Assembly: GCA_013166835.1 (NCBI GenBank)
Contig: JABLTI010000026.1
Coordinates: 1 to 29,000, forward strand
Direction of reading: 5' to 3'
Source: Promethearchaeati archaeon
Lineage (GTDB): Archaea > Asgardarchaeota > Heimdallarchaeia > JABLTI01
Length of the DNA stretch: 29,000 nt
Shown: piece after piece, positions 618-15,901 of the stretch
Position numbering within the stretch: the stretch's first letter is position 1
Layout: each line of letters opens with the position of its first letter
Position numbers and translations under genes: made by a program
The notes under the pieces: generated by a model
Told to the model about the DNA's origin: nothing
The model's database searches: none
The model's input: only the letters and a program-made list of their open reading frames with translations

Positions 618-2399
618 CTAGTAGACACTTACTTTTTTCTCTTCTTTCAATAAAGTCCTGCCAATCCTATTCATTAAAACAAATTCCAACATGTTTGAAC
701 CTGTTCTATCAAGTTTTATAGCTGGTTTGAATTTTAGATGTTCATTTGGTGAAATTTTCACTCCTTGAATTGAGAGCAGCTTATTTATCCCATCTTCAAT
801 TCTTCTGATTTCAAAGCAACCATTATAAATAGATTTCGAATTATTGCTTATTGTAATTACTTGATTCTTCATCGTTCCAGCCTTCATTACATCTGGGACG
901 GATAAATCAAAAGATAATTGTTTTCTAGTCTTGTTCTTATTAGTTAAATCGATCCTTGTTTTCTTTATTGGAATTGTTTTTGCTGGTATTTTTACAATGT
1001 CTGATCCCATAATCTCGATTGGTTTTTTATGAGTTGTATCTGAGAGAATTTTAACCTTAGTGGAATCCAGCATTTGAGGTTCAAGTATCTTAATAGTTTT
1101 AGTGCTAGTTGCATCAAATGGTTCTTTTTTCTTAAATGTTAATCCATGTTCAAAGATGATTTTCCAATCAATATTTACATCAAGCTTCTGTGTTTGCTCC
1201 ATAATTTGATATCTGTAAGAAACTTCTTTGGCTATTGTGTCTCCCATCCAGTTTCCACGAGTAACGATAATGGTATTTGGTAAAGAGCCAAGAAAAATAT
1301 CATTTCCATTTTGACCGGTCACGTCTATTGGAATCCATCTTCCCGCAACAAGAAATTCTGCAGTTGCATGTCTTTCCCAATTCTGAGCTAAGGCAAATCC
1401 TGCATTTGTTCTTGCAGGGATTCCTGCAGCTCTACAAAGAGCTACGAACAAAGCAGCATATTCTGTGCAATCACCTTCTCCTTTCTCGATCGCATAAGCA
1501 GCCCCGTATTCGTCCGGTTGAATTTTGTATTTTATTTTTCGATTAACAACTTTAGCAGCTTTTTTTGCAAATGATATTGGGTCCTTATTACTTATTTTTG
1601 AAGCAAGTTCTACTATTTTCGAATGATTACTCTCAATGTGCGGTTCTGGACTTAGATACTTTTTCAGAAATTGTTTTTTATAAGGATTTATCTTATAGTT
1701 TTCAGGAATAGATTTTGAAATGATCAGAGGTTGACAATCTGCAAGTGCTGAGAAACTCATAATATGTTCTGCTTGTGGGTCAATTCTTGGTAATTCATAA
1801 TGAATCCAGTGGTTTCCTTCGACATCAGTAGAATCCTTGAGGTTATTTGGGAACGTTTTCAAGTCCTTTATGATTTGTTGTGGGAGAATTGTTATAGGAA
1901 GCGCTACAAAGGCAGAAAAATTTCCAATGGTTTTAGTTGTAGGATTCTTAACTTTGATTTGATAATGAATACGCCATTTTGGAGAAATTGTCTTTGCTGT
2001 AAGATAGGTTTGTAATTTATTTACAGCTGTAACGTTGAAATAGTTCGTACAAACAATCTTATTTCGTGTATCTAGCACATTTGCTTGATAAGAACCGCAA
2101 ATCCAATTTTCAGGAATGATAACATCAAAGTAAACTAACTTAGAAGGATCAATTTCGTGCAAATCTCCTGATACTACTCTTTTTTCCAATGGACTAAGAA
2201 TTTCAATTATACCAGCTTTTACTTTTTGAGCATCGGTTTCGTCTGGATTAATAACTAATCGTAGTTTTTCACCATTTTTTATTGAGTTATGAGATTTTAA
2301 TGGAATGTCTCCTACTTCTGTACTTTGAAAAGAATTAATCAGCACGTTAATGTCCTCGGTTTCTTCACTTCTTTTCTTTCGTTTGTTTCTTACTGTCAA
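618..2399 (-). CDS. Transglutaminase-like (Cys-His-Asp) domain protein, cytoplasmic, multi-domain
   Basis: GDCTEYAALFVALCRAAGIPAR ... HATAEF ... WIPIDVT gives the transglutaminase-like catalytic triad. No signal peptide. Linker with repeated IKIL-type motifs, then a beta-rich C-terminal domain. Confidence 0.88.
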   Translation of the reverse strand: MTVRNKRKKRSEETEDINVLINSFQSTEVGDIPLKSHNSIKNGEKLRLVINPDETDAQKVKAGIIEILSPLEKRVVSGDLHEIDPSKLVYFDVIIPENWICGSYQANVLDTRNKIVCTNYFNVTAVNKLQTYLTAKTISPKWRIHYQIKVKNPTTKTIGNFSAFVALPITILPQQIIKDLKTFPNNLKDSTDVEGNHWIHYELPRIDPQAEHIMSFSALADCQPLIISKSIPENYKINPYKKQFLKKYLSPEPHIESNHSKIVELASKISNKDPISFAKKAAKVVNRKIKYKIQPDEYGAAYAIEKGEGDCTEYAALFVALCRAAGIPARTNAGFALAQNWERHATAEFLVAGRWIPIDVTGQNGNDIFLGSLPNTIIVTRGNWMGDTIAKEVSYRYQIMEQTQKLDVNIDWKIIFEHGLTFKKKEPFDATSTKTIKILEPQMLDSTKVKILSDTTHKKPIEIMGSDIVKIPAKTIPIKKTRIDLTNKNKTRKQLSFDLSVPDVMKAGTMKNQVITISNNSKSIYNGCFEIRRIEDGINKLLSIQGVKISPNEHLKFKPAIKLDRTGSNMLEFVLMNRIGRTLLKEEKKVSVY

Positions 2400-2721
2400 G
2401 TATTTTAATCCCTTTCTTAGGGAGGATCTTTACTGTTGGTTTCTCATCTTCTTTTACTATGTTTTGAGCTGTTGTTTGTACTGGTTTTGGTGGGAGAATT
2501 TTGATGAATTTCAATTCATGTTCTTTCACACCTAATAGTCTTGCAGCAGGACATAAGTCATAATCTTTTACAGCTTGTTTGCAATCAGGACAGAAATATG
2601 CTTGACATTCAGAACAGATGAATAATTCTTTGTAACTACGTGTTCCTGTTGCCAGTTGCTTATTGCAGAGAATGCAAGGTATTTTTTCCGTTCTGAGATT
2701 TACCACTACGACTACAACCAT
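2365..2721 (-). CDS. RING-like Cys-rich zinc-finger protein with low-complexity tail
   Basis: CILC...CSECQAYFCPDC...CP...H pattern. Overlaps the transglutaminase ORF start and resembles 15918..16403. Confidence 0.7.
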   Translation of the reverse strand: MVVVVVVNLRTEKIPCILCNKQLATGTRSYKELFICSECQAYFCPDCKQAVKDYDLCPAARLLGVKEHELKFIKILPPKPVQTTAQNIVKEDEKPTVKILPKKGIKILDSKKQTKEKK

Positions 2722-2826
2722 TCACTCATCTTTTCTTCGTAAAATATAGTTTTAATTACTGTTAATAATCTTGGTAATATTTAGTTGTTTTTTCACTAAT
2801 ATTAAGTTACCAAATAAAAGGAGATA

Positions 2827-2843
2827 TTGGGGGAGGTCCCCAA
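2827..2843 (-). terminator. Small GC-rich hairpin downstream of hisS
   Basis: TTGGGG-gaggt-CCCCAA inverted repeat about 10 nt after the hisS stop codon. Confidence 0.35.
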
Positions 2844-2852
2844 AAATATTCT

Positions 2853-4349
2853 TTACTTCTTTATTCGTTTGACTAATATACTAACGATTTTCTTAAGAGG
2901 AACGACTTCCTGATCTCCGGTAATAATGTTTCTTAGTGTTACTGCATCATTTGCTAAATCCTTGTTTCCAACAATTATCATCCATTCGACATTGCGTTTC
3001 TCTGCATTTTCGAAATGTCTTCTTAGTTTCCAATCAAATGGATTGAATATTGTTTTCAGTCCTTTAGCTCGTAGTTGATCTGATAGTTTTGTGATTATTG
3101 ATAAGTTTTCAAGTTTTATCGGAGCAATATAGACATCACAGATTTCTTGCTGGGGATATTTTACCTTGAATTCATCCATTAATTCCATGAGAACCGTTTC
3201 ACCGAAACCAAAACCTGTTCCTGTTAATGGTTGACCACCAAGCATAGCTACTAAATCTGCATATCGTCCTCCACCTGCTATGGCTCGTGGAAGAACTCCT
3301 TCTCTGCTCCATGCTTCAAAAACAATACCGGTATAATAATCCAAACCGCGTGCAAGACTACCATCATAGAGGACGTAATCAGTTATTCCAAAATTATCCA
3401 ATAACTTTGCGAGTTCTTCGAGATTCTTAAGTAAGTCATTTATATTTTCTAGTTTTGCTAGTTCCTTTACTTTCTTCAAGAATTTCTTTGGAGTATCCTT
3501 AATTTCTGATAGACTAAATAGAATATCAATTTGATCTTTATCCATCGTTAGTTCTTTCAATGCATCTTTAAATGAACTCTCAATAAAGAAAGAAATGTTG
3601 TCTATTATTTCTTCAATTACTTTTGTTTGTGGTATTAATTTGTAGATAGTATTCAACGAGGTTATATTTTGTCTAATCTTTAATGCTATATCGCTTGCTT
3701 GTTCCTCTGGAAACTTGCTTTTTATTTTCTTGAAGATGGATTCTTGTAACAACTTACCTTTTCTATCGAAAACTCGAAATACTGAAAGATAATCTGTTAC
3801 TCCTATTGATTCCATGAATTGTTGCATGAAACTTCTATCATTAATTAATACAACAAATTGTTTCTTGGATAATCCACATTCAGCAATTATTTTCGCAAGA
3901 ATTGTAATTATTTCTGCATCTGCATAAATTTCATCCATTCCGAGTATATCGATATTATACTGCCAGAATTCTTTGACTCTTCCTCTTTGAAGCGTTTCAT
4001 CTCTGTAGCACCGAGGTATACAGAACCATCTGATGGGTTTCGTATAGTACTGTTGTCGTTCTGCAAGCATTCTTGTAAGAGTTGGTGTTAATTCAGGAAT
4101 CAATACCAACTTCTGCCCACTTCTACTTGTAATTTTGAAAGTTTCTCCAACGAGCTCATCGCCTGATTTTAGTTCATATAATTTTCGCAGTTCTACTGCT
4201 GGAGTCTGATATTCCACATAACCAAATTCACGTGAAATGCGTCTCATTGTGCCTAGTACAAAGTCAACTTTTGCATATTCTTCTGGAAAGAAATCTCTGA
4301 AACCAGAGGGTTTTCCTATCTTTACTTTTTTTGTTTCTTCTTCAGTCAT
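2853..4349 (-). CDS. hisS: Histidyl-tRNA synthetase
   Basis: PSGFRDFFP, PELTPTLTR, motif 2 YRDETLQRGRVKEFWQ, ARGLDYYTG, AGGGRY, C-terminal anticodon-binding domain. ATG 4349 preferred over GTG 4358 because GAGGTG there looks like a ribosome-binding site. Confidence 0.97.
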   Translation of the reverse strand: MTEEETKKVKIGKPSGFRDFFPEEYAKVDFVLGTMRRISREFGYVEYQTPAVELRKLYELKSGDELVGETFKITSRSGQKLVLIPELTPTLTRMLAERQQYYTKPIRWFCIPRCYRDETLQRGRVKEFWQYNIDILGMDEIYADAEIITILAKIIAECGLSKKQFVVLINDRSFMQQFMESIGVTDYLSVFRVFDRKGKLLQESIFKKIKSKFPEEQASDIALKIRQNITSLNTIYKLIPQTKVIEEIIDNISFFIESSFKDALKELTMDKDQIDILFSLSEIKDTPKKFLKKVKELAKLENINDLLKNLEELAKLLDNFGITDYVLYDGSLARGLDYYTGIVFEAWSREGVLPRAIAGGGRYADLVAMLGGQPLTGTGFGFGETVLMELMDEFKVKYPQQEICDVYIAPIKLENLSIITKLSDQLRAKGLKTIFNPFDWKLRRHFENAEKRNVEWMIIVGNKDLANDAVTLRNIITGDQEVVPLKKIVSILVKRIKK

Positions 4350-4615
4350 TTGAGACACCTCAAAATTACTTGCATTATTCTATTCTTTTTCCTTTGAGAT
4401 TCAAAAAATTTCCTCAAAAGAAATGGCTTAGAAGTGGGATTTAACCTATTATAAAATAGACTTATTGCATATTTTCTTTTAGTGAACATTATCCCACATT
4501 ATGAGTTACACCTAGAAAGAAAGCAAAGACAACAATATTTAATGTTTTCTATGAAAAGTCATTCAACTAAGAATCTAGTGGATTATAATCCCATAACGTT
4601 ATGTTTTATTAGGAG

Positions 4616-5149
4616 ATGATTTCTTATTTACATATTATGAGTAAACGAACTACAAGTTCTAGATTTTTCATTATTGCGGCTTTCATAGTGTTATTGTTTT
4701 TTGGTGGGTTTTCATTATTTGGTTATTTTGCGGGAAGTATGTTTATGTTTTACTTCATACTTGGATTCGCAGTTCTATCTTTTGTTATGATAATGTTATT
4801 TGCATTAATTATGAGAAAGAAGGGTATACAAGATTGGGATAAAGACAAAGATGAAATTCACTCAAAATTAGCTACTTATACTCCAGAAAAAACAAGCGAT
4901 GAATACAAAGAGTTTGTACAACCACGAGTCCAATCCTCATCTGGCAGATACCGTATTGATGCATATGTGATCACAAATCCACCATCCAACGAATTGTGCA
5001 GAATATCAAAACTACCACTTAGAACTGATCAGGATGTTTTGCAGTGTCCCTCTTGTGAATCATATTTCATTAAGAATTATTTGGAAGATTGGCTTCGAGA
5101 AAATGATGTTTGCCCCGTTTGTAAATTCAAACTCAAAATCATTGTTTAA
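4616..5149 (+). CDS. Membrane-anchored degenerate RING-finger protein (putative E3-like)
   Basis: Two N-terminal hydrophobic helices. C-terminal CRIS...CPSC..F....L..WL....CPVC RING-like spacing. Start may be ATG 4637. Confidence 0.72.
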   Translation: MISYLHIMSKRTTSSRFFIIAAFIVLLFFGGFSLFGYFAGSMFMFYFILGFAVLSFVMIMLFALIMRKKGIQDWDKDKDEIHSKLATYTPEKTSDEYKEFVQPRVQSSSGRYRIDAYVITNPPSNELCRISKLPLRTDQDVLQCPSCESYFIKNYLEDWLRENDVCPVCKFKLKIIV

Positions 5150-5171
5150 TTTAATTAAAAAAACAGAAAAA

Positions 5172-5190
5172 GAATGGGAGATTCCCATTC
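5172..5190. terminator. Hairpin between convergent genes, T-tract on the minus strand (likely hutH terminator)
   Basis: GAATGGGA-gat-TCCCATTC 8-bp stem, followed on the minus strand by TTTTTCTGTTTTTTT. Confidence 0.55.
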
Positions 5191-5197
5191 AATAAGC

Positions 5198-6721
5198 TTA
5201 ATTTAAGCTGCCAACTTCTTTTTCGACTTCTTCAAGGATCTCGCAAGATTTAACAAGTGCTTTCATTGTGTTATGATCATCGAATAAAGGTCGGTCTTCA
5301 TCAAGGAATTCAACATGTCTTCGAATAACTTCTTTTGCTTTAGTAACTCCATCACCGAACTTGAATTCTCTGAAATCTAGAGCTTGAGCAGCAGCCATAA
5401 ATTCGATGCCTAAAACACCATAGGCATTATCCATGATTTGATTATTCTTCAATGCAGTGTTCATACCCATTGAGACAAAATCCTCTTGATCAGCAGCAGC
5501 TGGAATAGACATAATGCTTGCAGGCATGGATAAGATTCGCATTTCTACGATTTGCATGTCAGCAGCATATTGACTTAACATAAGACCTGACATTAAACCT
5601 GCACCCTTTGTTAGGAAAGGTGGTAAGCCAATACTTAGAGCTGGATGATTTAATCTGTTCATACGTCTTTCAGACATGACACAAACCATAGTAATAGCAG
5701 CACCAGCCATATCCATTGGTAAACAAACTGGAGTTCCTTGGAAATTAGCACCAGTTAACTGTAACTTTTCTTTGGTGAAGAAGACAGGATTATCACCTAC
5801 ACCATTAAGCTCAATTTCTACTTGTGATCGAGCCCAAGCAAGTGCATCATGAGCAGCACCAATAACTTGAGGAGCAGAACGCATTGAGTAAGCATCTTGA
5901 ACTTTTACTTTCAATTTGCCTTCAAACAAGTCTCCACCTTTGAAAAGCTTAGAAAGTGCTGTTGAGCTTCTAATTGCTCCAGCGAAACCTCTAATCTTGT
6001 GCAGTTTAGGAGTATAAGGTTTCATGTTGCCCATTAAAGCTTCAATCGACATTGCGCAAGCAATTTCAGCTTGCTTCAGGAAATTTAAAGCATCATAAAG
6101 CCAAAGAGCACTCATACCTGTAAGGAAATTGGAACCATTAATTGCTGCTAAACCATCCCTAGGTTGCAAGCCAGGAATTTTAATGCCTGCTTTATCCATG
6201 GCTTCTTTACCAGGTATTAATTTACCTTTATAATAGGCTCGTCCTTCACCCAAAAGTAGTAAAGCAATTTGTGACATAGAGCACAAGTCTCCAGAAGCAC
6301 CAACAGAACCTTTTTCCATTACTTCCGGAGTAACTCCTTTATTTAGCATCTCAACTAATGTTTCAGCAATAATCACTCTATTACCAGAATAACCTTGTGT
6401 AAGAACATTAAGGCGACCTAACATAGCAGCACGAACATGTTCAATAGGGGCTGCATCGCCAATGCCTGCAGCATGATTGTAAATTAAGTATTTCTGGAAT
6501 AGCAAGGTTTCCTCTTCATTGAAGAATGTTTCCGAGAATTCTCCAATCCCTGTAGTTATTCCATACATTACCTCTCTTGCTTTTATTTTCTCTTCAAGCA
6601 TATCTCTGCATGCTTGCATCTTTTTTATTGCATCTGGATGCAATTCCACTTTCTCGTTATGACGTGCGACTTTAACAACATCTTCGATTGTTAGTCCTTC
6701 ACCAGTAATCACATATGTCAT
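5198..6721 (-). CDS. hutH: Histidine/aromatic amino acid ammonia-lyase (MIO enzyme), copy 1
   Basis: YGITTGIG, GSVGASGDL (MIO Ala-Ser-Gly), VQDAYSMR, DNP, GANFQG, QEDFVSMG. ATG 6721 with upstream AGAGG preferred to TTG 6754. NH and FQG/QEDF variants leave the substrate less certain. Confidence 0.85.
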   Translation of the reverse strand: MTYVITGEGLTIEDVVKVARHNEKVELHPDAIKKMQACRDMLEEKIKAREVMYGITTGIGEFSETFFNEEETLLFQKYLIYNHAAGIGDAAPIEHVRAAMLGRLNVLTQGYSGNRVIIAETLVEMLNKGVTPEVMEKGSVGASGDLCSMSQIALLLLGEGRAYYKGKLIPGKEAMDKAGIKIPGLQPRDGLAAINGSNFLTGMSALWLYDALNFLKQAEIACAMSIEALMGNMKPYTPKLHKIRGFAGAIRSSTALSKLFKGGDLFEGKLKVKVQDAYSMRSAPQVIGAAHDALAWARSQVEIELNGVGDNPVFFTKEKLQLTGANFQGTPVCLPMDMAGAAITMVCVMSERRMNRLNHPALSIGLPPFLTKGAGLMSGLMLSQYAADMQIVEMRILSMPASIMSIPAAADQEDFVSMGMNTALKNNQIMDNAYGVLGIEFMAAAQALDFREFKFGDGVTKAKEVIRRHVEFLDEDRPLFDDHNTMKALVKSCEILEEVEKEVGSLN

Positions 6722-6896
6722 ATTTCTGCCTCTTAAATGAATAACTAGCTTCAATAATATATCAGTTTAAAATTTTTGTCTAATATTACGATAAATGAAG
6801 TAGTTTGCAGTAAGTAAATAGTACTTCTTGTTGGTATTATTTTAATTAAATTAGACTAGGAAATATACTTAATAGTCAATTTTAGAAAACTCGATT

Positions 6897-7478
6897 ATGA
6901 ATAAAAAAAGTGCTTATTTATTCCTCTATGATCAGTTTGCAGATTTTGAAGTTATTCAAGCATTATTGCTCCTAAGAGATAATTATAATCTTACAACAGT
7001 TGGTTTTCAGAAAGGACTAGTTGACTCATTTTCCAATTTGAGAGTAGAAGCTTCAATGACTATTGAAGATATCGATGCTGCTAATGTGGATGTTTTCATT
7101 ATTCCTGGTGGAGAGCCAAAAGATTTCATTAGAAATGATAAATATTCCAAGAAAATCCAGAGTCTTAATGACAAGCTTATTGCCTTAGCTAAATCAGGAA
7201 AAATTATTGCTGCAATTTGTGGAGGTCCTACTTTTCTAGCAAATGCAGGAATTCTAGATGGAAATAATTGTACGGCTTCTATTGATAACGAAGGAGAGGA
7301 AAAATTCTACGAAAAAAGTACTTTCAAAGATTCTGATTATGTTCTCGATAAGAATATTCTAACTGCAAAAGGCCATGCATTTACTGATTTTGCTGTTCAA
7401 TTAGCTAAATTATGTGGTGTCCTGAAAACAGATGAGGAAGTAGAGCAAACAAGAAATTGGTTGCGAAATGTTGAATAG
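6897..7478 (+). CDS. DJ-1/PfpI family protein
   Basis: FADFE, IIPGG, nucleophile elbow AAICGGP, LANAGILDG, ILTAKG. Confidence 0.92.
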   Translation: MNKKSAYLFLYDQFADFEVIQALLLLRDNYNLTTVGFQKGLVDSFSNLRVEASMTIEDIDAANVDVFIIPGGEPKDFIRNDKYSKKIQSLNDKLIALAKSGKIIAAICGGPTFLANAGILDGNNCTASIDNEGEEKFYEKSTFKDSDYVLDKNILTAKGHAFTDFAVQLAKLCGVLKTDEEVEQTRNWLRNVE

Positions 7479-7524
7479 AAAAAGAAAAGTAGGAGCGTAG
7501 GTGCTCTCTGAAGGAATAATAGTC

Positions 7525-8118
7525 TCACTTACTATTCAATCGTTTTAAATAAGAATCCCAAAAGAGCACATTCCGAAGGATTTTATTTCCATGCTCCAAG
7601 GTATGTTGAATGGATTTTGTTATAATGAATTCTATAGTAACATTACCCCAATTAGTGTTTGATCGTTTCTCTGTCCATTGAGCTTCAGTGATTTTATTTA
7701 GTATGTCAATCTGTTTCTTACGAACTAGATGAAATCTATCGAGTAGAGTTTGAAGGGAAAGTTCATTCATCAATGCATCTTGATATGCTGCTTTCTCTCC
7801 ACCACATCTACGTTTCATTTGTTCCGATTCTTCTAACCACAAAGTCAAATTTGGCAAAGCTGCAGACTCCTCATAATGTAATAAATGAAATAAAATATGA
7901 TAGGCAGACCAAGAACCGAAATATCTTTTCACATCTTCCGATGCGTTTGGATGAGTGCTATGGGGTGGTTCCTCTAATAGTCGTTCATCAGGTACTGATT
8001 TCATTGCCCATTCAATAATCTTAGCAGTTTCTCCTAATTGTCTTGCTAAAAGATCCTTAGAATTTTCTTTAGATATTTTTGTTGGACACGGATTTTTAGT
8101 TTTCTCTACTTGAGTCAT
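7525..8118 (-). CDS. DinB/YfiT-like four-helix-bundle protein
   Basis: WSAYHILFHLLHYEE and QHTLEHG metal-binding His pattern typical of the DinB superfamily. Confidence 0.8.
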   Translation of the reverse strand: MTQVEKTKNPCPTKISKENSKDLLARQLGETAKIIEWAMKSVPDERLLEEPPHSTHPNASEDVKRYFGSWSAYHILFHLLHYEESAALPNLTLWLEESEQMKRRCGGEKAAYQDALMNELSLQTLLDRFHLVRKKQIDILNKITEAQWTEKRSNTNWGNVTIEFIITKSIQHTLEHGNKILRNVLFWDSYLKRLNSK

Positions 8119-8221
8119 AATTAAAACCTATAGTATATGAAAAAAAATTCATATAAAAGAATATTCACATATCTATAATTATTCAGATGTATTTAAGACA
8201 AAAAAAAATGAATAAAGAAAA

Positions 8222-8295
8222 TGGTGCCAGGAGAGAGAATTGAACTCTCGGCTAAGCATCCACAGTGCCTAATGTTACCATTACACCATCCCGGC
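8222..8295 (-). tRNA. trnH: tRNA-His (GUG), CCA encoded, no intron
   Basis: GCCGGGA TG GTGT AATGGTA ACAT T AGGCA CTGTGGA TGCTT AGCC GAGAG TTCAATT CTCTC TCCTGGC A CCA folds as a cloverleaf with anticodon GTG. Confidence 0.97.
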
Positions 8296-8437
8296 AATGC
8301 TATTAGTTGTTGCAAATCTTAACTGGTTAATAAAATTTATTGAAGATATTTATATTCAGTCTATGGACCTGTAGAGAGTAAAAAATAGCGATAGAATATA
8401 TAGGGCTACTGTAATATTATAACTTAGAGCGAGACAA

Positions 8438-8794
8438 ATGAAATTTTCAGAGTTAGAAAATAAACTAATTGTAGATATTAATAGTAAAAAATTAGGGACG
8501 ATTATACGTGTAGATGTCCATTCTTCATTGGATAAAGAAGAAGCGATATTTCTAGCGATAATCAAAATTCATCATTTTTTCAGAAGAGATCATTACTTTC
8601 CGATGCCAGTTAATGCACCTATTCTAACACAAGTTGAACAGAATACCCTGCGTTTAGATATGACTAAGAAGGAATTTGCAATGATAGTTCAGCAATATGA
8701 TACTGAGCGAAAGCTCAAAGTAAAAAAGGCAGATTTAGCAAAAGCTTCTGATCACGATAAAGCCATAGCCCTTTCTGCTTGGTCTAGGTTTTAA
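8438..8794 (+). CDS. PRC-barrel domain protein
   Basis: MKFSELENKLIVDINSKKLGTIIRV matches the PRC-barrel N-terminal pattern. Confidence 0.65.
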   Translation: MKFSELENKLIVDINSKKLGTIIRVDVHSSLDKEEAIFLAIIKIHHFFRRDHYFPMPVNAPILTQVEQNTLRLDMTKKEFAMIVQQYDTERKLKVKKADLAKASDHDKAIALSAWSRF

Positions 8795-8893
8795 TCCATT
8801 CAAGAATTTTCCTATTTTCTCCTATGATAGATTTTTGTTTTTTACCCAGACACTTATATTTTTAGATTGTAATTATCAAATAGCATACTGAGG

Positions 8894-10846
8894 TTGGCGT
8901 TCCTGAAGCAAACTAAAGCATTTTCATTTTTCATTATCTTTATGCTAGTTTCACTTTCATTACAAGTTGATTCATATTGGAAAAATCCAGAAAGTCAAAA
9001 TGATGTTGTATATCCTAATACAGTCAAAAACTGGACTATGATGCTTTATTTTTGTGCTGATACACGATCTGATTATGTTACTTCTGATCTAAACAATTCT
9101 GGAAATGGTCTCTATATTGACATGCTTGGTACACTTAATTACCTTGATGATAATCTCCAAGCTGGATCTTCGGATTTCATCAATATAATCGCTTTATTTG
9201 ATTATCCTTGGACAGACTTTCATCCTTACGGTTATGCTGAAATGTATGAGATAACTTCAACTGGCAAAAATCGTATAGCTGAACTTGATCGTACAAATAT
9301 GGGTGATCCGCAAACACTAGAAGATTTCATTACTTTTTGTAAAACGAATTATCCTGCGAATTATTATTCACTATCACTTATTGACCATGGAAGAGGATAC
9401 GCTGGATTTTGCTATGATTATCACGCTACTCATCCTTATTGGGCGTATGCTTTAGGGGATTGTTTAACTGTTCAAGAAATTGACACGGTTCTTGGTAATA
9501 CGGGTGGTGTAGATATTTTATGTTTAGATACCTGCTCAGGCGGATCTTTTGAGGTTAGTTGGCAATTTATAGATGAGGTTGATTATCTTCTTGCAGGAGA
9601 ATCCATGCAATGGAATAATGCGCTGGTTCATTCAGTTGAGATGGCATATAATTTGAGCTGTAATGTTGGTTATACTCCTTTTCAGTTTGCTCAAAGTGCT
9701 TTTGATTGTGCTAAAAAAATACAAGTTTATCCTTGGAATAATGGTGGTCGTTGGAAATCGAATTCCTGGTATGATCTAACTCAGTTTGACGTTCTCGGGG
9801 CATCTCAAAATGTGATGGAAATTTTTAGCGATTTATCTGATTTACTCTTGGACGAGTTGAATCACAATTACACCACAAACAGAGAGCTATTTATTGAAAT
9901 TCGTAATATATCCACGCTAGATGAAAAGGCATTTAGTACGAAATCTATGATGGTGGATCTCTATGATTTTGTCAATAATTTATTGCCTTATTGTGATCAA
10001 TTTTATTATGGAGGTCCCATTGCAACCCTAGGATCTGAACTTTTAACTAAAATAACACCAAACACTGCTGCTATTGTACGGGGCGAAGCTCACGATTCGA
10101 GATATGATGGATTATATGGTTTTAGTGTTTGTTTTCCAGATTCATATGATATGTATCAAGGATATCTTTATCCTAATTTCTATGAAGGATTAGATATTTC
10201 TCTAAACACTAAATGGGATGATTTCATATTACGACTATTTCCACAATTAAATTTTAATATCAATCAATTTGAATTTTGGGAATTTCAGTTGAATCTTATC
10301 GATCCTTCTGTTGGTTTACATGTCTTCTTAGAACATGAAACTCTCATAAATCCCATACACATAGGATTAAATGAATTTGCGGATTTTGGTATGGGTGTAG
10401 AACTTGGCTTAGATGGAGCTGAATTTTATGATGATCTTTTATTTGGTAATTCCATGATTCGCATTCCTTCTGAAAGCTTGAATTCTTTTCTCATGAAAGC
10501 TCCTAGCCCAACTGAAATTACTTTCAAAGTGGTAGTTAATGCCACTGCAGCAGCTAGTGCTAGCCAGATGGTTAATTTAACAGTCAAGCATGTAAATAAT
10601 CAATCAGTGGTTTGGCAAGCAAATAAACTAAGCACCTTTGAAAGAGGGCAAACATTGATTTGTAAAGTTTCTACAAATGAAGAAATTACTGATTTCGAAA
10701 TCATTGATTCCCCATTTGATACTCCTAGAACAATTTTAGGATTACCTCTTAAATGGTTCATAGTCACAGTAGTTGGTTGTGTGGTACTATTAGCAATTAT
10801 ATTCACAATTACCTTTTATTTAAAAAAGAAAAAATCAAGAGTCTAG
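8894..10846 (+). CDS. Clostripain-family (C11) cysteine peptidase, secreted and C-terminally anchored
   Basis: Signal peptide, WTMMLYFCAD, NMGDPQTL, YPANYY.L.L.DHGRG (catalytic His), LDTC (catalytic Cys), C-terminal TM helix plus KKKK tail. Confidence 0.9.
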   Translation: MAFLKQTKAFSFFIIFMLVSLSLQVDSYWKNPESQNDVVYPNTVKNWTMMLYFCADTRSDYVTSDLNNSGNGLYIDMLGTLNYLDDNLQAGSSDFINIIALFDYPWTDFHPYGYAEMYEITSTGKNRIAELDRTNMGDPQTLEDFITFCKTNYPANYYSLSLIDHGRGYAGFCYDYHATHPYWAYALGDCLTVQEIDTVLGNTGGVDILCLDTCSGGSFEVSWQFIDEVDYLLAGESMQWNNALVHSVEMAYNLSCNVGYTPFQFAQSAFDCAKKIQVYPWNNGGRWKSNSWYDLTQFDVLGASQNVMEIFSDLSDLLLDELNHNYTTNRELFIEIRNISTLDEKAFSTKSMMVDLYDFVNNLLPYCDQFYYGGPIATLGSELLTKITPNTAAIVRGEAHDSRYDGLYGFSVCFPDSYDMYQGYLYPNFYEGLDISLNTKWDDFILRLFPQLNFNINQFEFWEFQLNLIDPSVGLHVFLEHETLINPIHIGLNEFADFGMGVELGLDGAEFYDDLLFGNSMIRIPSESLNSFLMKAPSPTEITFKVVVNATAAASASQMVNLTVKHVNNQSVVWQANKLSTFERGQTLICKVSTNEEITDFEIIDSPFDTPRTILGLPLKWFIVTVVGCVVLLAIIFTITFYLKKKKSRV

Positions 10847-12574
10847 ATCTATTACAATACTACCTGCTCTTACTAATTCAACTATTTTGTTTATGTCTGG
10901 ATAGATTATTCTATCATGAACTAATTTTGGAACGACTGATCTGATTGTTTTGTAGGCATTGTATGTTTGTTTTCCTAGTGCTTTTTCGTGAGGAATCTTT
11001 TGTATTTCGCACCTCAAATCTATTGCTTGCACTGCTAACATCATTTCGATGGCAAGAATGTATTGAAGGTTTTCAAGGATTTTCGCTGTTTTTCTTGCTG
11101 CAATTGGGCTCATACTTACATGATCTTCAGCTTCATCAGATGTTGGAATTGAATCTACAGATGCCGGGGCTGATAATACTTTGTTTTCTGATACTAACGC
11201 TGCTGCGGTGTATTGAGGCATCATAAAACCACTATTCAATCCTAATTCACTGCGTGGTATCAAAAAGAGACTTAATCCGTCGTTTCTTTTATCATCGATT
11301 AGTTTTGCGCATCGTCTCTCTGAAATATTGCCTACTTCAGCCATAGCGATTGATAAGTAATCCATAACCATAGCAATCGGTTCACCATGGAAATTACCAC
11401 CAGAGTAAATATCAAATTCTAACGGATCTTTTTTGGTGATAAAAATTAATGGATTATCAGTCGCGGCATTAATTTCTCGAGAAATCGTATCACAGCAATG
11501 TGCCAATGTTTCTCTTACTGGGCCCAATACTTGTGGAGTGCACCTTATAGAGTAGTCATCTTGTATTTTTGGCCACTGCTTTTCAAAATCAGCCTTTGAT
11601 CCACCACAATTTGGACAAATCCAATCATCTGGTAAATTGATAAATTCAGTATTAGGAGGTACATTTTGTGACGCATCACCCATTTTCCTATCATAGTAAT
11701 ACCCACAATTCTCTACTTCACATGTGAATAAACTTTCATGCTTTTTCACAAAGACGCTGCCTTTTGTATAGGACCGAAGGTTTTTAGCTACCTCTATTTG
11801 ACCAGGGTGAAATCGTGCTTGATGGATTCTATCGTCAAATTGTTGACTAGCTGCTTTGAGAGCTTCTAATGATAAGGCTGCAGCAATTTCTGCATTCTTG
11901 ATTAAATTACTTGCTTCGTGTAAAACTATACAGGCTATTCCTGCTGAATATTGAGCGCCATTATTTAGAGCTAAGCCTTCTTTGTATGATAATTTTGTAA
12001 TTGGAATCCCGGCTTTTTGCATGCCTTCTTTAGCATTGTATATTTTTCCCTCAAATTTCAGATTGTTTTCTCCTTCACCAATCATCGCCAAAACCATATG
12101 TGATAGTTGTGCTAAATCTCCACTTGCTCCAACAGATCCTTTTATTGGAATTATTGGTAAGACATTTTTGTTTATCATTTGAACTAGATTTTCTAAAGTT
12201 TTTAATTGGCAGCCAGAATATCCTTGTGCAAGTGCAGTCACCCTTAGAACCATCATAGCTTTGACGAAATCATCTCGAGCAGGTTCCCCAACCCCGACAC
12301 AGTGACTTCTTATCAAATTAGTTTGTAATTTAGTAGCATCTTTTTCAGGAATAACAATATCCCGCAATGCGCCAAAACCAGTAGTAATACCATAGATTTT
12401 TTCCCCTGATTCTACAGCTTTTTCAATAGCTTTTCGAGCTAAAATCACTTTTTCTTTCACATTTTCAGATAGCTTCAACTTGTAATCATTTTTCACAATG
12501 TGAACAACATCTTCCAATGAGAGTCCTTCATTATCAAGAATTACTGTTTCTGGCAAGAGCTTAATCCACTCCAA
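10835..12574 (-). CDS. hutH: Histidine ammonia-lyase, copy 2, with inserted rubredoxin domain
   Basis: YGITTGFG, NLIRSH, GSVGASGDL, IQDDYSIRCTPQ, GGNFHGEP, EDHVSM. In-frame rubredoxin at 11579..11728. Start could be TTG 12556. Confidence 0.93.
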   Translation of the reverse strand: MEWIKLLPETVILDNEGLSLEDVVHIVKNDYKLKLSENVKEKVILARKAIEKAVESGEKIYGITTGFGALRDIVIPEKDATKLQTNLIRSHCVGVGEPARDDFVKAMMVLRVTALAQGYSGCQLKTLENLVQMINKNVLPIIPIKGSVGASGDLAQLSHMVLAMIGEGENNLKFEGKIYNAKEGMQKAGIPITKLSYKEGLALNNGAQYSAGIACIVLHEASNLIKNAEIAAALSLEALKAASQQFDDRIHQARFHPGQIEVAKNLRSYTKGSVFVKKHESLFTCEVENCGYYYDRKMGDASQNVPPNTEFINLPDDWICPNCGGSKADFEKQWPKIQDDYSIRCTPQVLGPVRETLAHCCDTISREINAATDNPLIFITKKDPLEFDIYSGGNFHGEPIAMVMDYLSIAMAEVGNISERRCAKLIDDKRNDGLSLFLIPRSELGLNSGFMMPQYTAAALVSENKVLSAPASVDSIPTSDEAEDHVSMSPIAARKTAKILENLQYILAIEMMLAVQAIDLRCEIQKIPHEKALGKQTYNAYKTIRSVVPKLVHDRIIYPDINKIVELVRAGSIVIDLDS

Positions 12575-12725
12575 GGTTTTTTTTCCTTATTTGTATTGGT
12601 TTATTGCTATCATCATTTAAACATATTTTTTATTTGGAGTAAAATTACTGTTCTTGATTGCTATTAATGCAAAAAACAAAAAGAAATTGAGAGAAAAGAA
12701 CAATTTACTCTTGCTAATAAATCAA

Positions 12726-13043
12726 TTATTGTTTTTGTTTTAATCGTTTTCTTTTAATGAATTCCTTTCCTTTGAAATGTCGATAACATTTCAAATAGGG
12801 TGAAAAATTAGGAGGTATTACTTCTTTGATTTCCATGTCTTTTTCTGATATGATTTTTATTGTACTCGCTCTCTTATGTTTTTCTTCTATCTCCTCTTGA
12901 TATACCTCTTCAGCAAAAATTTCCTCTATAGATTCTTCTTCACTTGTGGTTGAACTCACTTCGTATGCAAATTCCAAAGGTTCTTCAGTATCTTTGGTAT
13001 CCGCTTTATTTTCACTTGTGGTCTCAACTTTCTTGTTTTTCAT
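12726..13043 (-). CDS. Small acidic, low-complexity hypothetical protein; last gene of the SMC/Ubl operon
   Basis: ATGA start/stop overlap with the E2 gene. Glu-rich N-terminal half, TIKIISE motif, basic C-terminus. Confidence 0.7.
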   Translation of the reverse strand: MKNKKVETTSENKADTKDTEEPLEFAYEVSSTTSEEESIEEIFAEEVYQEEIEEKHKRASTIKIISEKDMEIKEVIPPNFSPYLKCYRHFKGKEFIKRKRLKQKQ

Positions 13044-13795
13044 ATTATCCTCACTCCTCCTTTCTTTTCTTCCTCTTTCTCCTCTCGAGGTATGATCTTA
13101 ATAGTTGTTCCTTTATCCTCTGTGACTACTTTCTCTTCACCTTCAGAACCAATAATTCTAATACCACCACTTTCTTTCAAAGATACTTTCTCATGATTAG
13201 CATCCCATTTTGTTAGCATTAGTTTATGGATATTATCAGCGTCTTTCTCAAACCACCTCATTGCAATGGTATTCGTTCCTGAGTCTTCTTTCGGAAAGAG
13301 CTTTGGGGGGCGTATTCTTCTTGGATCCATGAGAATGTGATAAAGAATATCAATGAGTATTCTATCTACTTCCCCATTCACAGTTATACAAGCTTCACCG
13401 TTGCTACCTGTAGATATTCTTGGATGCCATAACCTTGTTATAGCCCTCATTTTGATATGGGAGAGATTTGCTGGATATTCTCGAGGAAGAAAAATTGAGA
13501 ATTTATGATCGTTACTCATATTTAATTGCTTTCTGTTTGCTGATTGTCCTACTAAACCGGGGGTTCTCCTCATTGTGAAGAGGATATCTCGATAAGCACT
13601 ATCTTTGTATTTTCCCTTTATTTCTACAGTGTAATCTTCCTGAACCCATTTGTCCCCTGTGCGTTTTTGTGGTACCCACTTCCACCCTTTCTTTTTGAAG
13701 AAATCTTCCATTGATTCATAGAAAACTGAAATTGATTCAGCTATTCTAGCATTTACTACTGTAGCTGGAAAATATGTTCTCGCTATTTTTTTCAC
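13040..13795 (-). CDS. Ubiquitin-conjugating enzyme E2 (UBC fold) with C-terminal tail
   Basis: FSIFLPREYPA...ITRLWHPRIS...GEAC matches the UBC signature (F-x-YP, HP(N)I, G-x-x-C active Cys). Adjacent to the Ubl and E1 genes. Confidence 0.82.
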   Translation of the reverse strand: MKKIARTYFPATVVNARIAESISVFYESMEDFFKKKGWKWVPQKRTGDKWVQEDYTVEIKGKYKDSAYRDILFTMRRTPGLVGQSANRKQLNMSNDHKFSIFLPREYPANLSHIKMRAITRLWHPRISTGSNGEACITVNGEVDRILIDILYHILMDPRRIRPPKLFPKEDSGTNTIAMRWFEKDADNIHKLMLTKWDANHEKVSLKESGGIRIIGSEGEEKVVTEDKGTTIKIIPREEKEEEKKGGVRII

Positions 13796-13888: not shown

Positions 13889-14200
13889 TTATCCTACTTG
13901 AGCACAAGCGTCTAACTTGAAACGTTCATTTGATTCCAATGCTGGTTCAAGCGAACCAAAGGTTGCAGCAGGTGGCAATGCTGTGTTACCAGTCATTTTT
14001 CTCATCATGATAAAACTAACATTGGGTTGCCCGACCTTTTCCTTAGCCCACTTATTGATATCGACACCTTCATCGATGCATCTTTGTACCAAAGTTTTTA
14101 CAACTTCATCTATTGTTGATTCTTCCTCAACAGCTACACGAAATTCTTTTTGTCTTGGCTCAACATCTATAATGACTTCACGCCATATTTCTTCGCTCAT
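13889..14200 (-). CDS. Ubiquitin-like (beta-grasp) modifier with C-terminal Val-Gly
   Basis: Beta-beta-alpha start (EVIIDV..KEFRVAVEEESTIDEVVKTL). FIMMRK..GNTALPPAATFGSL..LESNERFKL parallels ubiquitin [27 protein letters not shown]. Ends AQVG-stop and lies between E1 and E2. ATG 14200 or GTG 14212. Confidence 0.75.
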   Translation of the reverse strand: MSEEIWREVIIDVEPRQKEFRVAVEEESTIDEVVKTLVQRCIDEGVDINKWAKEKVGQPNVSFIMMRKMTGNTALPPAATFGSLEPALESNERFKLDACAQVG

Positions 14201-14279
14201 TGTTTTGTTCACACCTAAGTTATATTGCTGTTTGATGCTTTCTCAGCATCTTTAGTACTCCATCAGGCTTCTGATGGGG

Positions 14280-15221
14280 TTACCGATCTGAGATTTTATT
14301 TGCCTTTCTTCTTGCCCTACACGTTACATCTACACATTTGGGATTTGGCATAATGTTCGCGAATATCATTTCATGATCACGTAAATCATACCTAATCATT
14401 TTACCGAAATTAGGTTCTTGACCTTTGGTAACATCTGAGTATCCGCCTTTTCCGTCACTACTTACCAATACTTTTGTTGCTTCCACAGACATAATTCCTC
14501 CAACGATTGAAGTTAAAGTGCTAATCATTGGAAATTTTGGCAGTGTTTCCACAAAGAATTCATCACAACTCAGAACCACTTGATGATTCATAATTGCTTG
14601 ATAGTAATCTTCACTCCATAAACACACAGCACAAGCAGTAATTCCCGGATGATAGATTTGGGCTTCTATGAAGGACTTACCCATTGCACCATTAATCATA
14701 GGGACTGTTTTTTCTTGCATTAAATTACCATAATTTAACATGTATCTTGCATAATCATTATCTAATGCCATTATGATTAAATCAACTTGATACACTTCTT
14801 GTGGTGCGTCCTCTATTCGCACTTCATATGGGGTTACTTTTGTGTTAGGAGCTATTTCTGGTAATCTTTCAGCTACTGCATTTACTTTTGAAATGTTCTT
14901 ATGGTCACCTGGTCTGAAGAAAATGCATCTGTTTATGTTAGATTTATTTACAATATCAAAATCAACGAGCTTGATATGTCCTACACCTAGCATTCCCAGG
15001 TTTTTACAAATTTCATTTCCTACAGCTCCGGCTCCTACGCATAAGATAGTACTATTCTTTATTTTTTCTAGATTCGCTTTGCCAAAGTATCTTCTTGTCC
15101 TATCTTCAATATCCTCTTCAAAGAAACCAACACTTAGTAACTCTTTTTCTTTTATAGAACCATGGGATGAATTATCCGATTGGTGAGTACTTTTTTTCTG
15201 TGTTGATTCTCCATCTGGCAA
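14280..15221 (-). CDS. E1-like activating enzyme (ThiF/MoeB/E1 family)
   Basis: VGAGAVG nucleotide-binding motif, DFDIVNKSNINR, ALDN..AR, Zn ligands CAVC and CVDVTC, candidate catalytic Cys in VLSCDE. Confidence 0.93.
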   Translation of the reverse strand: MPDGESTQKKSTHQSDNSSHGSIKEKELLSVGFFEEDIEDRTRRYFGKANLEKIKNSTILCVGAGAVGNEICKNLGMLGVGHIKLVDFDIVNKSNINRCIFFRPGDHKNISKVNAVAERLPEIAPNTKVTPYEVRIEDAPQEVYQVDLIIMALDNDYARYMLNYGNLMQEKTVPMINGAMGKSFIEAQIYHPGITACAVCLWSEDYYQAIMNHQVVLSCDEFFVETLPKFPMISTLTSIVGGIMSVEATKVLVSSDGKGGYSDVTKGQEPNFGKMIRYDLRDHEMIFANIMPNPKCVDVTCRARRKANKISDR

Positions 15222-15238: not shown

Positions 15239-15901
15239 TCATTTTACAGTATATTCGATCCAGTCTACCTCTTTGAGATCTTTTTCGCCATTCTCATTAA
15301 CAACAATATAGGATTTGTAATAATTAGATCTAGGATCAATTAAGACAAACACATTATGTTCAGCATCGTAAGGAAAGTTTAGAAATGTGTTATAATCAGT
15401 CGATGAGAAATGTGGATTGGATCCAAACGGATGAGAATGAAAAATACCGACTATTTTTGGTCGTTCTTCACTTCCACCATACTTTTCTTCTATAATAGTT
15501 GTATATTGTCTAACGCCTTCTGGGGTAAATTCCGCATAAGCATGACTTGAATATGCTTTTCCTGTGACCCAGTCAACAACTTTAACGTACTTCTTTCCTT
15601 TGTATAGATATTTGTACCCAAGTAATATCCCAATTGCTTCATTTGGGTCTGATTTCTTACATAATAGAAATGTTTCGTAAACGACTCTTTGTAAAATATA
15701 AACAGGATAAATGTCTTCTTCTTCTGGATTCCCTATTAATTCTTCTGTTTTTGATTTCTCAGTAATCGTTTTCTCTTGTATCAATTCTTCTTTTCTTTTA
15801 CTTCTTTTTGGAGTTCCTTCAGGCTCTCCTAATAATTTACCAAGATGATTCTTCGGGGTTTCTTTTTGGGAGTCCTTCTTATCTTTCTTCATGTTATCCA
15901 C
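15239..15901 (-). CDS. JAB1/MPN+ (JAMM) metallo-isopeptidase
   Basis: EAIGILLG ... VGIFHSHP....FSSTD is an intact E-HxH-S-D JAMM motif; VLIDP follows. Confidence 0.92.
   Translation of the reverse strand: MDNMKKDKKDSQKETPKNHLGKLLGEPEGTPKRSKRKEELIQEKTITEKSKTEELIGNPEEEDIYPVYILQRVVYETFLLCKKSDPNEAIGILLGYKYLYKGKKYVKVVDWVTGKAYSSHAYAEFTPEGVRQYTTIIEEKYGGSEERPKIVGIFHSHPFGSNPHFSSTDYNTFLNFPYDAEHNVFVLIDPRSNYYKSYIVVNENGEKDLKEVDWIEYTVK

Follow-up and report, generated by a model that had tools for sequence, protein, structure and literature searches.

A candidate SIM-like docking motif shared by conjugation proteins, a RING-like zinc finger and a transglutaminase-fold enzyme in an Asgard Ubl/SMC gene cluster

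Closest described systems

The archaeal ubiquitin operon of Caldiarchaeum and Asgard archaea comprises ubiquitin, an E1-like and an E2-like protein, a small RING finger protein and an Rpn11/JAMM protease (PMC5654768; for this and all other papers cited, our statements refer to the available part of the text), and an Asgard version of it is linked to ESCRT (bioRxiv 10.1101/2023.07.25.550441). In this study, a stretch of 29,000 nucleotides from a heimdallarchaeial contig (JABLTI010000026.1, assembly GCA_013166835.1, positions 1 to 29,000; hereafter the window) was analysed, with emphasis on two adjacent genes, encoding a 118-residue zinc-finger protein (ZnF118) and a transglutaminase-fold protein (TGase), and on their relation to a cluster that encodes a ubiquitin-like protein (Ubl), its conjugation cascade and an SMC protein. 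Like the archaeal ubiquitin operon, this cluster brings together E1, E2, a RING-type zinc protein, a modifier precursor of beta-grasp type and a JAMM protease. It differs in that its modifier ends in VG and has no ubiquitin match in Pfam, its E2 is marginally matched by UQ_con, and two paralogous RING-like proteins, the TGase, a small acidic protein and an SMC unit are added. The terms 'SMC' and 'transglutaminase' are absent from the available text of both papers, and no paper connecting an Asgard SMC protein, a Ubl cascade and a transglutaminase was found in the literature searched, from which subscription journals and closed supplements were outside. What is new here is thus a combination of known kinds, namely a Ubl cascade, a RING-like ligase, a motif resembling the SUMO-interacting motif (SIM) and an enzyme of the transglutaminase fold.

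A SIM core is defined as four residues, at least three of them V, I or L, in a disordered region with flanking acidic residues or Ser/Thr, and RNF4, a SUMO-targeted ubiquitin ligase (STUbL), is composed of a RING plus four clustered SIMs (PMC12751080). ZnF118 resembles such ligases in having a RING-like domain and two or more hydrophobic strand motifs in a disordered tail, though its motifs lie C-terminal to the domain, their flanks are basic in the window's own lineage (Heimdall-type hereafter, the close relatives of the window proteins being labelled Candidatus Heimdallarchaeota), and the E2, the small protein and the TGase of the cluster bear the motif as well. The motif is like SIMs in its four-residue core with three V/I/L, its disordered context and its multiple copies, and like parallel SIMs in the acidic run after the core in most lineages; unlike the SIM situation, the cluster Ubl is not SUMO by sequence, and Heimdall-type copies have K/R at position 2 and K-rich flanks.

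The TGase shares a Transglut_core domain and a Cys-His-Asp triad with the COG1305-type bacterial transglutaminases (3isr_A; TgpA, 6g49_A), from which it differs in being encoded in an archaeal Ubl conjugation cluster and, in its Heimdall-type form, in carrying two extra beta-rich regions and a motif-bearing linker. It is not of the archaeal PNGase lineage discussed in PMC6222260. The Legionella transglutaminase MavC, a thiol transamidase that, as far as its available description goes, can deamidate ubiquitin or cross-link ubiquitin Gln to E2 Lys, is likened to the window enzyme for chemistry alone. With regard to the SMC side, SMC-kleisin-kite operons related to SMC5/6 have been described in Asgard archaea, and the Nse1 RING is considered a eukaryotic innovation absent from archaeal kites (bioRxiv 10.1101/2024.01.07.573240); the available text of that paper does not mention a linked Ubl system. 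As in SMC5/6 with its Nse1 RING and Nse2 SUMO ligase, an SMC protein with small partners (one a winged helix) here stands beside a RING-like protein and a Ubl cascade, the likeness of the window SMC to SMC5/6 coming from a PDB sequence search.

The shared motif and the gene order

The cluster consists of three units, (i) the SMC, a 287-aa protein, a winged-helix protein and a RING-like 161-aa protein (RING161), (ii) the Ubl, the E2-like protein, a small acidic protein (p105 in the window), ZnF and TGase, and (iii) E1 and a JAB protease. Coordinates are those of the window, and the genes and features of the pair and of the cluster all lie on the minus strand. We observed nine matches to [IV][KR]I[IL] in the 25 window proteins (8931 aa), confined to ZnF118, the TGase, the E2-like protein and p105. 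In 1000 shuffles of the window proteins the mean was 2.3 matches and the maximum 8; the remaining 21 proteins harbor none against 1.95 expected, which also happened in 14.7% of the shuffles. Taken singly, the observed count was reached in 0 of 5000 shuffles for ZnF118 and likewise for the E2, in 177 for the TGase and in 107 for p105, and in 10 of 5000 for the TGase linker alone. As the pattern was defined after these copies had been seen, conservation is a stronger test than the shuffles.

The first-pass annotation, made from the sequence alone, had pointed to three strings in ZnF118, FIKILPP, TVKILPK and GIKILDS (residues 73, 97 and 105). All three are present, and the last two are conserved tail copies: copy A (VKIL, residues 97-100; 2422..2433) and copy B (IKIL, residues 105-108; 2398..2409) are aliphatic in 23 of 23 rows of the ZnF118 family alignment (A2, 23 sequences) at columns 106, 108 and 109 and at columns 125, 127 and 128, respectively, compared with a mean top-residue share of 0.28 in the other 62 tail columns. 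Copy B is also found in the family representatives P0123-P0128, P0136 and P0142. FIKILPP, on the other hand, is no free repeat, because in A2 it aligns with FTRFLGPR, FTRFL, FLKML or VVKLL of other lineages and because it forms strand 72-75 of the Zn domain in the AlphaFold2 (AF2) model; its IKIL (residues 73-76; 2494..2505) is the last strand of that domain. A similar sorting applies to the TGase linker. TIKILEP and KVKILSD (residues 436 and 449; nt 1094 and 1055) are conserved among the 26 orthologues aligned in A1 (35-90% identity), the first motif (IKIL, residues 436-439; 1083..1094) in 26 of 26 rows within an indel-rich linker and the second (VKIL, residues 449-452; 1044..1055) in 23 of 26, with K448 invariant and K450 and I451 nearly so, but PIEIMGS, also named earlier, is not conserved, and IVKIP keeps one aliphatic column. 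An origin of the copies by DNA duplication was considered and rejected, as just chance-size matches of 12-21 nt were obtained.

Across the Asgard lineages, the motif generalises to an isolated psi-x-psi-psi of the form [ST/G/K/R]-[IV]-x-[IVF]-[LI], followed by D/E outside the Heimdall type. The Heimdall-type logo (39 instances) reads [TGS]-[VI]-[KR]-I-[LI]-[PDSG] with K-rich flanks, T/S/G preceding the core and P/D/S and then K following it, and the logo of the other lineages (71 instances) reads [GS]-[RKST]-V-[RVIQ]-I-L-[DEG]-[DE] with an acidic run after the core. When isolated psi-x-psi-psi islands were counted per 100 aa in loci L004-L031, a definition independent of the window's own pattern, densities of 1.28 in p105 (10/10 proteins), 1.22 in ZnF (25/25) and 1.04 in E2 (20/20) were recorded, against 0.091 in 225 other open reading frames (ORFs), at most 0.08 in other cluster families and none in 17 Ubls. 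Together with the shuffles, these densities show that the motif is far more frequent than an Ile/Lys-rich composition predicts. The E2 carries three copies (nt 13151-13162, 13091-13102 and 13043-13054, the last at the C-terminus), the small protein one (in p105 IKII, residues 62-65, nt 12849-12860, followed by a conserved PPN(F/Y)xP), the ZnF two and the Heimdall-type TGase linker two. In the tails, nearly every column that is at least 85% aliphatic is a motif position; elsewhere gaps are common, and the mean share of the top residue is 0.26-0.33. Judged by these alignments, the motif is conserved in the otherwise variable tails of proteins of exactly unit (ii). It agrees with the formal definition of a SIM core in having at least three V/I/L among four positions, a predicted disordered stretch and, in most lineages, an acidic flank; the earlier label of SIM-like repeats is therefore justified for the core and for the ZnF tail (pLDDT below 50), but the acidic flank is found only outside the Heimdall type.

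A profile scan with A1 over one genome per species gave 75 loci, of which L001-L031 are Asgard; the ORFs of each locus were assigned by BLAST against the window proteins, and the in-cluster lineage labels are Hermod, Prometheo, Thor and Odin. The ZnF gene lies directly upstream of the TGase gene in 28 of the 31 Asgard loci, the exceptions being L027, whose contig measures 2.9 kb, L030, where no ZnF was found, and L031, which is truncated by the end of its contig. The pair is located inside the Ubl/SMC cluster in 19 of the 21 non-Heimdall-type loci (L011-L031); one strand carries the RING161, winged-helix, 287-aa and SMC genes, the opposite strand carries those for Ubl, E2, a small ORF, ZnF and TGase, and E1/JAB are convergent. 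The small ORF between E2 and ZnF, a relative of p105 (RI[VI]IL-ERDIPFEEERPPNFSP), is present in 15 of 17 such loci, and 4-nt ATGA overlaps are frequent at the gene junctions of the Ubl-E2-(small ORF)-ZnF-TGase series. In the window's lineage, 10 kb of unrelated genes split ZnF-TGase from Ubl-E2-p105, an order repeated in four Heimdall-type loci (L003, L004, L008 and L009) with 6.8-8.9 kb between p105 and ZnF. The pair had been described as a satellite of the operon; since it stands inside the cluster in 19 of the 21 other Asgard loci, the satellite position is a Heimdall-lineage rearrangement of an ancestrally contiguous unit, and a distribution independent of the Ubl operon, which would have spoken against a connection, was not observed in these loci. 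A tree was computed from 70 rows of TGase cores, six loci having been excluded because their matches were short or weak. It contains a Heimdall-type clade of 11 rows (99/98-99) and an in-cluster clade of 19 rows (99/99), and these 30 ZnF-linked Asgard rows lie together on one side of a branch. We regard ZnF118 and the TGase as standing components of an Asgard cluster of about 11 genes and not as an accessory module, and consider the chances evenly balanced that this explanation, with the role proposed below, is right as a whole.

Components of the cluster and their surroundings

The ZnF118 gene extends over 2365..2721 (118 aa from ATG 2721), and the orthologues point to GTG 2706 (MVNLRTE) as an alternative start. 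Its resemblance to the operon's 161-aa protein had been remarked before and is borne out: the pattern CxxCxx[YF]xCPxC...CP...G...HxL occurs in ZnF118 (CSECQAYFCPDC...CPAARLLGVKEHEL) and in RING161 (CRICRTFICPKC...CPSFIFGIDRHQL), BLASTP aligned the two with 29% identity across 42 aa (E 4e-5), and hhalign matched the profile of A2 to that of the RING161 family (A3, 13 sequences) with a probability of 97.5% and E 5.9e-12 over 63 columns. ZnF118 is confirmed, on this sequence evidence, as a paralogue of RING161. Profiles and the AF2 model place a predicted binuclear Zn-binding, RING-like domain between ligands C16 and H68 (2518..2676), in which C16, C19, C36, C39, C44, C47, C57 and H68 are invariant in A2 and spaced C-x2-C-x16-C-x2-C-x4-C-x2-C-x9-C-x10-H, so that ligand 4 is the Cys of a CxxC pair, not of CxH, and ligand 8 is a distant His. 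When a profile of the Zn domain alone (A6) was compared with the PDB, the RNF4 RING came first (E 5.5e-7 for the RNF4 tandem construct and 4.5e-4 to 1e-3 for single RINGs), followed by TFIIH p44; ligands 1, 2, 3, 5, 6 and 7 are paired in the alignment with RNF4. The model, which like AF2 models in general holds no zinc, is folded over residues 11-80 (pLDDT 67-90). A domain search among 1.84 billion representatives returned 33 proteins at E <= 1e-3, the small ones being ZnF118 and RING161 families and the long ones generic Cys-rich repeat proteins. The atlas look-alike Prok-RING_2 scored below 0.9 and was kept as a lead only. Among longer proteins, P0121 (238 aa) was the sole fusion found for the ZnF118 family. 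It is an in-frame deletion-fusion in which the Zn domain is joined directly to the TGase linker, both motif copies included, and to the C-terminal domain (window 2518-2706 joined to about 618-1130), so that the ZnF118 tail, the TGase N-terminus and the catalytic core are missing; it may be a real variant or an assembly artefact.

The TGase gene was listed among the ORFs as 618-2399 (593 aa from TTG 2399), and residue numbers here follow that version. The overlap with ZnF118 claimed from it is an artefact of the TTG start, because 23 of the 26 orthologues begin 18 codons downstream and GAGGA stands just upstream of the corresponding GTG 2345 (VLINSF...); the gene is accordingly placed at 618..2345 (575 aa), with a gap of 19 nt from the ZnF118 stop. 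The Transglut_core domain (residues 265-359; 1323..1607) matches PF01841 with 76.8 bits against a cut-off of 23 (E 1.9e-21), a cut-off also passed by the in-cluster TGases of L011, L013 and L030. The Cys-His-Asp triad had been called intact, and indeed Cys311 (1467-1469), His344 (1368-1370) and Asp359 (1323-1325) are invariant across the 26 sequences of A1 and line up with the GxC, H and D catalytic motifs of 3isr_A and TgpA 6g49_A. These were the two solved relatives that the TGase profile found in the PDB, where no PNGase was returned. A conserved block of A1, PD...N...G.(F/I)E(I/V)...NRIGR, marks the C-terminal domain (about residues 495-593; 621..917). About 40 full-length orthologues exist in Heimdall- and Asgard-labelled records, and relatives are named 'transglutaminase domain-containing' or 'hypothetical protein' in public records. 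Short in-cluster forms (ORFs of about 290 aa in L013, L015, L022, L023, L028 and L029) lack the first N-terminal region and the C-terminal domain and end in WKV(T/K/R)x(V/I)(V/I)(G/S)(L/I/F)... soon after the core. A mobile-element origin of the TGase was rejected, as weak generic matches alone were obtained in plasmids (3 records, 25-28% identity) and phages (1 record).

The Ubl gene (13889..14212; 103 aa from ATG 14200, ending ...AQVG) lies between E1 and E2 in the window and adjoins E2 elsewhere. The protein models as a beta-grasp fold in the order beta-beta-alpha-(alpha)-beta...beta (pLDDT 77.7, pTM 0.72), and Foldseek aligned the model to Caldiarchaeum ubiquitin, SUMO1, ubiquitin, UFM1, ATG8 and the bacterial EccD Ubl domain with probability 1.00 (TM by query 0.5-0.67, E 6e-4 to 7e-3). 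Its sole Pfam trace is a weak YukD match in 8 of 15 members (best E 0.043), and the atlas look-alikes Rad60-SLD and PI3K_p85B scored below 0.9 and served as leads only. In the homologues, an invariant VG is followed by 0 to about 50 residues, and they are therefore made as precursors. The family has 46 clusters, named 'hypothetical protein' wherever a record names it. The invariant DVEPRQKEFR (residues 12-21, alignment A4) spans the turn between the first two modelled strands, and its Gln17 and Lys18 are obvious candidates for a recognition or modification site.

The E2-like gene (13040..13795) matches UQ_con at E 9.6e-4, below the cut-off, and has an HPR motif and Cys136; in the E2 alignment (A5), H124, P125, R126 and C136 are invariant, as are I214, P236 and I250 in the tail. 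The p105 gene (12726..13043) overlaps the E2 stop by 4 nt (ATGA). E1 (14280-15221) belongs to the ThiF family (Pfam, 3.7e-40), its nearest solved relatives being the adenylation domains of eukaryotic UBA1, UBA3, UBA6 and SAE2, and the JAB/JAMM metalloprotease (15239-15901) matches Prok-JAB at 2.1e-8. In RING161 (15918-16403), whose profile found nothing useful in the PDB, the first Cys of the third pair is replaced by Asp (FFIDPxC) outside the Heimdall type, and ligand 2 is His (CAGH) in the window; the zinc site is therefore partly altered. Of the 13 members of the winged-helix family (208 aa in the window; 16428-17054), 12 show weak matches of MarR type and one a weak match to MksE; the family profile found nothing in the PDB, and no Pfam family was above the cut-off. 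The 287-aa protein (17076-17939) lies between the winged-helix and SMC genes; neither it nor the p105 family had a useful Pfam match, and a kleisin label for it comes from its position only. The SMC (17923-20922) is, from its PDB sequence matches, a true SMC, with Smc, Smc6 and Smc1/3 recovered at E 1e-13 to 1e-7 and yeast Smc6 among the best full-length matches. NCBIfam gave nothing useful for ZnF118, the TGase, p105, E2, Ubl, RING161, the winged-helix or the 287-aa protein.

The 10 kb between the pair and p105/E2 (2722-12725) show a histidine theme, with HisRS (2853-4358), tRNA-His (8222-8295) and two paralogous aromatic-amino-acid (histidine-type) ammonia-lyases (5198-6754 and 10835-12574), the latter of which has a rubredoxin domain inserted; Heimdall-type loci differ in the length of this spacer and in the genes that it holds. 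A hairpin after HisRS fitted the terminator pattern and was rejected, since its z was -0.01 and 85 of 200 shuffles folded at least as well. A membrane protein (TM-RING177) encoded at 4616-5149 on the plus strand has a C-terminal RING-H2-like finger (zf-RING_2 E 0.0013, below the cut-off), and a relative of it (L027, 813-1592, on a Sifarchaeum-labelled contig) lies divergently beside a TGase; HHalign of TM-RING177 with the ZnF domain gave 63.6%, which is not significant. At 1-519 on the minus strand, a gene cut by the window end encodes a multi-pass membrane protein of about 620 aa without a Pfam match (L001 10151-12007 and relatives), which follows the TGase in all seven Heimdall-type loci with a flank reaching that far, including L005 and L010. 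In L011-L029, 16 of the 19 loci have an SF2 helicase (ResIII + Helicase_C) on the far side of JAB and 12 have a histone-deacetylase-family protein on the far side of RING161, and still more distant are genes for GNAT, HAD, malic enzyme and a Ras-like GTPase; the window's cluster has none of these genes nearby, and their recurrence may reflect the shared ancestry of related metagenome-assembled genomes (MAGs). Locus L005 (DATKZI010000043.1) is titled Candidatus Bathyarchaeia, yet it has the HisRS-ZnF-TGase-membrane protein order of the Heimdall type and its TGase falls within the Heimdall-type clade; the bin label may be wrong. The G+C of the window is low (0.31-0.39).

Proposed role, alternatives and meaning

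We propose that the motif would act as a docking strand that gathers E2, p105, ZnF and the Heimdall-type TGase on one common partner. Ubl grooves generally bind hydrophobic strands of this kind. For that reason, and because the motif fits the SIM definition of PMC12751080, the Ubl is favoured as the partner, which would be bound by beta-strand addition as SUMO is by SIMs; by analogy with that system we put this at slightly less than an even chance. Held on Ubl or on Ubl-modified targets by its two motif copies, the RING-like ZnF would support further transfer from E2, and the TGase would act on the C-terminal or isopeptide bonds of Ubl, the likely targets being the neighbouring SMC complex or its chromatin surroundings. 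The simplest role for the TGase would be that of a thiol peptidase acting on precursors or conjugates of Ubl. We tentatively name trimming of precursors or deconjugation, at less than even probability, and Gln-directed deamidation or cross-linking is doubtful; the bolder alternative would be a MavC-like deamidation or cross-link at the invariant Gln17/Lys18 of Ubl. The retention of the TGase in Heimdall-type genomes whose Ubl needs no trimming suggests a role beyond maturation. That ZnF118 might be a STUbL-like E3, as proposed in the first-pass annotation, agrees with two conserved motif copies beside a RING-like domain and with RNF4 as the best RING match both by sequence profile and by fold, but one Ubl gene per cluster was found in the loci examined, and reading one modifier while writing another is thus not evident.

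The conjugation proteins could be docked by the motif not on Ubl but on the SMC complex (SMC, 287-aa protein, winged-helix protein or RING161) or another hub, a possibility that we consider rather unlikely. Nse2 sits on Smc5 in eukaryotes, which provides a parallel, the SMC unit is transcribed divergently beside the Ubl unit in 14 loci with all of its proteins lacking the motif, as a receptor would, and basic Heimdall-type flanks suit a SIM model poorly. No receptor fold was recognised, however, the winged-helix and 287-aa proteins matching nothing solved; moreover, psi-x-psi-psi with an acidic run is a known form of Ubl-groove ligand (PMC12751080), and no protein of the cluster is more conserved than the Ubl, whose mean column identity is 83%. 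It would be more surprising still if the strands paired mutually, three from E2, one from p105, two from ZnF and two from the Heimdall-type TGase, in an intermolecular beta-sheet with no separate receptor: the motif occurs in precisely the proteins of a single translationally coupled unit, and a turn-like PKKG or PKKS between the Heimdall-type ZnF copies gives the look of a hairpin, but the ZnF tail forms no hairpin in AF2, where no strand is assigned to it, and the spacing between its copies varies from 3-4 residues to about 13 by lineage. Hardly any credence is given to the motif lysine being a Ubl acceptor, as in a psi-K-x-E sumoylation site, or to the motif being a chance product of Ile/Lys-rich composition. 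Though Lys occupies position 2 in all window copies but two, that position is R in 10 of the 39 Heimdall-type instances and R, V, I, Q or T in the 71 others, with K in only 3; the shuffles reject chance, and the conserved positions are the aliphatic ones. A defence system of SMC-like Lamassu/Wadjet type with Cap2/Cap3-like E1 and JAB, of which the pair would be the effectors, is very improbable. PADLOC matched the SMC to LmuB (3.5e-12), the E1 to CBASS-type E1-E2 domains (to 3.8e-19) and the JAB as well, and weak 6A-MBL cap2_3 matches were obtained from NCBIfam; these PADLOC matches are nevertheless at superfamily level, with none for ZnF, TGase, E2, Ubl, p105, RING161, the winged-helix or the 287-aa protein, the cluster order is kept across several Asgard phylum labels with identities that track taxonomy, the TGase matches in plasmids and phages are weak, and the flanking genes are housekeeping.

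Several observations weigh against the proposed docking on Ubl and against the cluster as its setting. In the window's own lineage the motif flanks are basic, not acidic, and a net-charge comparison between Heimdall-type and other lineages singled out no receptor partner. The linker copies are restricted to Heimdall-type TGases (0 of 19 other TGases with a readable segment), so that recruitment of the enzyme through the motif would not be universal. The Ubl, searched against Pfam and the PDB as single sequence and as profile, gave no ubiquitin, SUMO or UFM1 sequence match, and Foldseek places it no closer to SUMO than to other beta-grasp proteins. In two Heimdall-type loci, L005 and L010, the pair has no cascade gene within about 9.5 kb, and no ZnF accompanies the TGase of L030. 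The 19 in-cluster loci, whose MAGs are related, do not count as 19 independent observations, and the branch joining both TGase clades is weakly supported (76/31, 73% of 200 bootstrap trees). As for ZnF118, no Pfam RING model was passed by its family, its last ligand pair is C-x10-H against C-x2-C, and Foldseek returned nothing at E <= 1e-3 with its model, all listed matches having E >= 6e-3; the domain is therefore called RING-like, not a RING. At the head of the Foldseek list stands a chain of 71 residues from the S. solfataricus 30S subunit (E 6.4e-3), which probably corresponds to the two-zinc protein (about 80 residues) of PMC11698992; for aS34, one of the new proteins of that paper, the authors point to similarity with a RING E3 domain. 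Such a match, along with the weak zf-UBP matches of 19 of the 23 family members (E 0.0082 at best), would suit a ZnF118 that is not an E3 and either reads Ubl, for example at a free C-terminus as zf-UBP domains read ubiquitin, or is a structural zinc protein, which we hold to be unlikely. B-box, IBR, FYVE and RING matches are as weak in the same Pfam scan, the profile and fold lists are otherwise headed by RING/U-box E3 domains with RNF4 first (below the ribosomal chain, Foldseek lists RNF4, U-box, B-box and TRAF RING domains at E 0.2-1; RNF4 2xeu_A has E 0.23, probability 0.89 and TM 0.61 by target), and A2 shows conservation of a hydrophobic residue following the first Cys and of a Pro following the seventh ligand, which we take to be E2-contact positions.

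Ubiquitin-type signalling depends on short motifs that read the modifier; such readers, like the ligases constructed from them, are considered eukaryotic. In the cluster described here, the E2, the RING-like protein, the small adaptor and, in one lineage, also an enzyme have a candidate reader motif in common, and gene order links them all with an SMC complex in those archaea that stand closest to eukaryotes; the cluster proteins are small, soluble-looking and easily tested in vitro. Taken as a whole, a second, unannotated Asgard Ubl system that serves the SMC complex, with SIM-like motifs on the E2, the RING-like ligase and the thiol enzyme reading the modifier, is an unlikely proposal. If it is true, the logic of SUMO and SIM, STUbL-type ligases and Ubl control of an SMC5/6-like complex would already have been assembled before eukaryotes, as would a transglutaminase-fold Ubl peptidase or cross-linker without a known cellular counterpart. 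If the motif binds Ubl, it would represent a prokaryotic SIM-type system, the view of the Nse1 RING as a purely eukaryotic addition (bioRxiv 10.1101/2024.01.07.573240) would be qualified, and the link between Ubl and SMC would predate eukaryogenesis.

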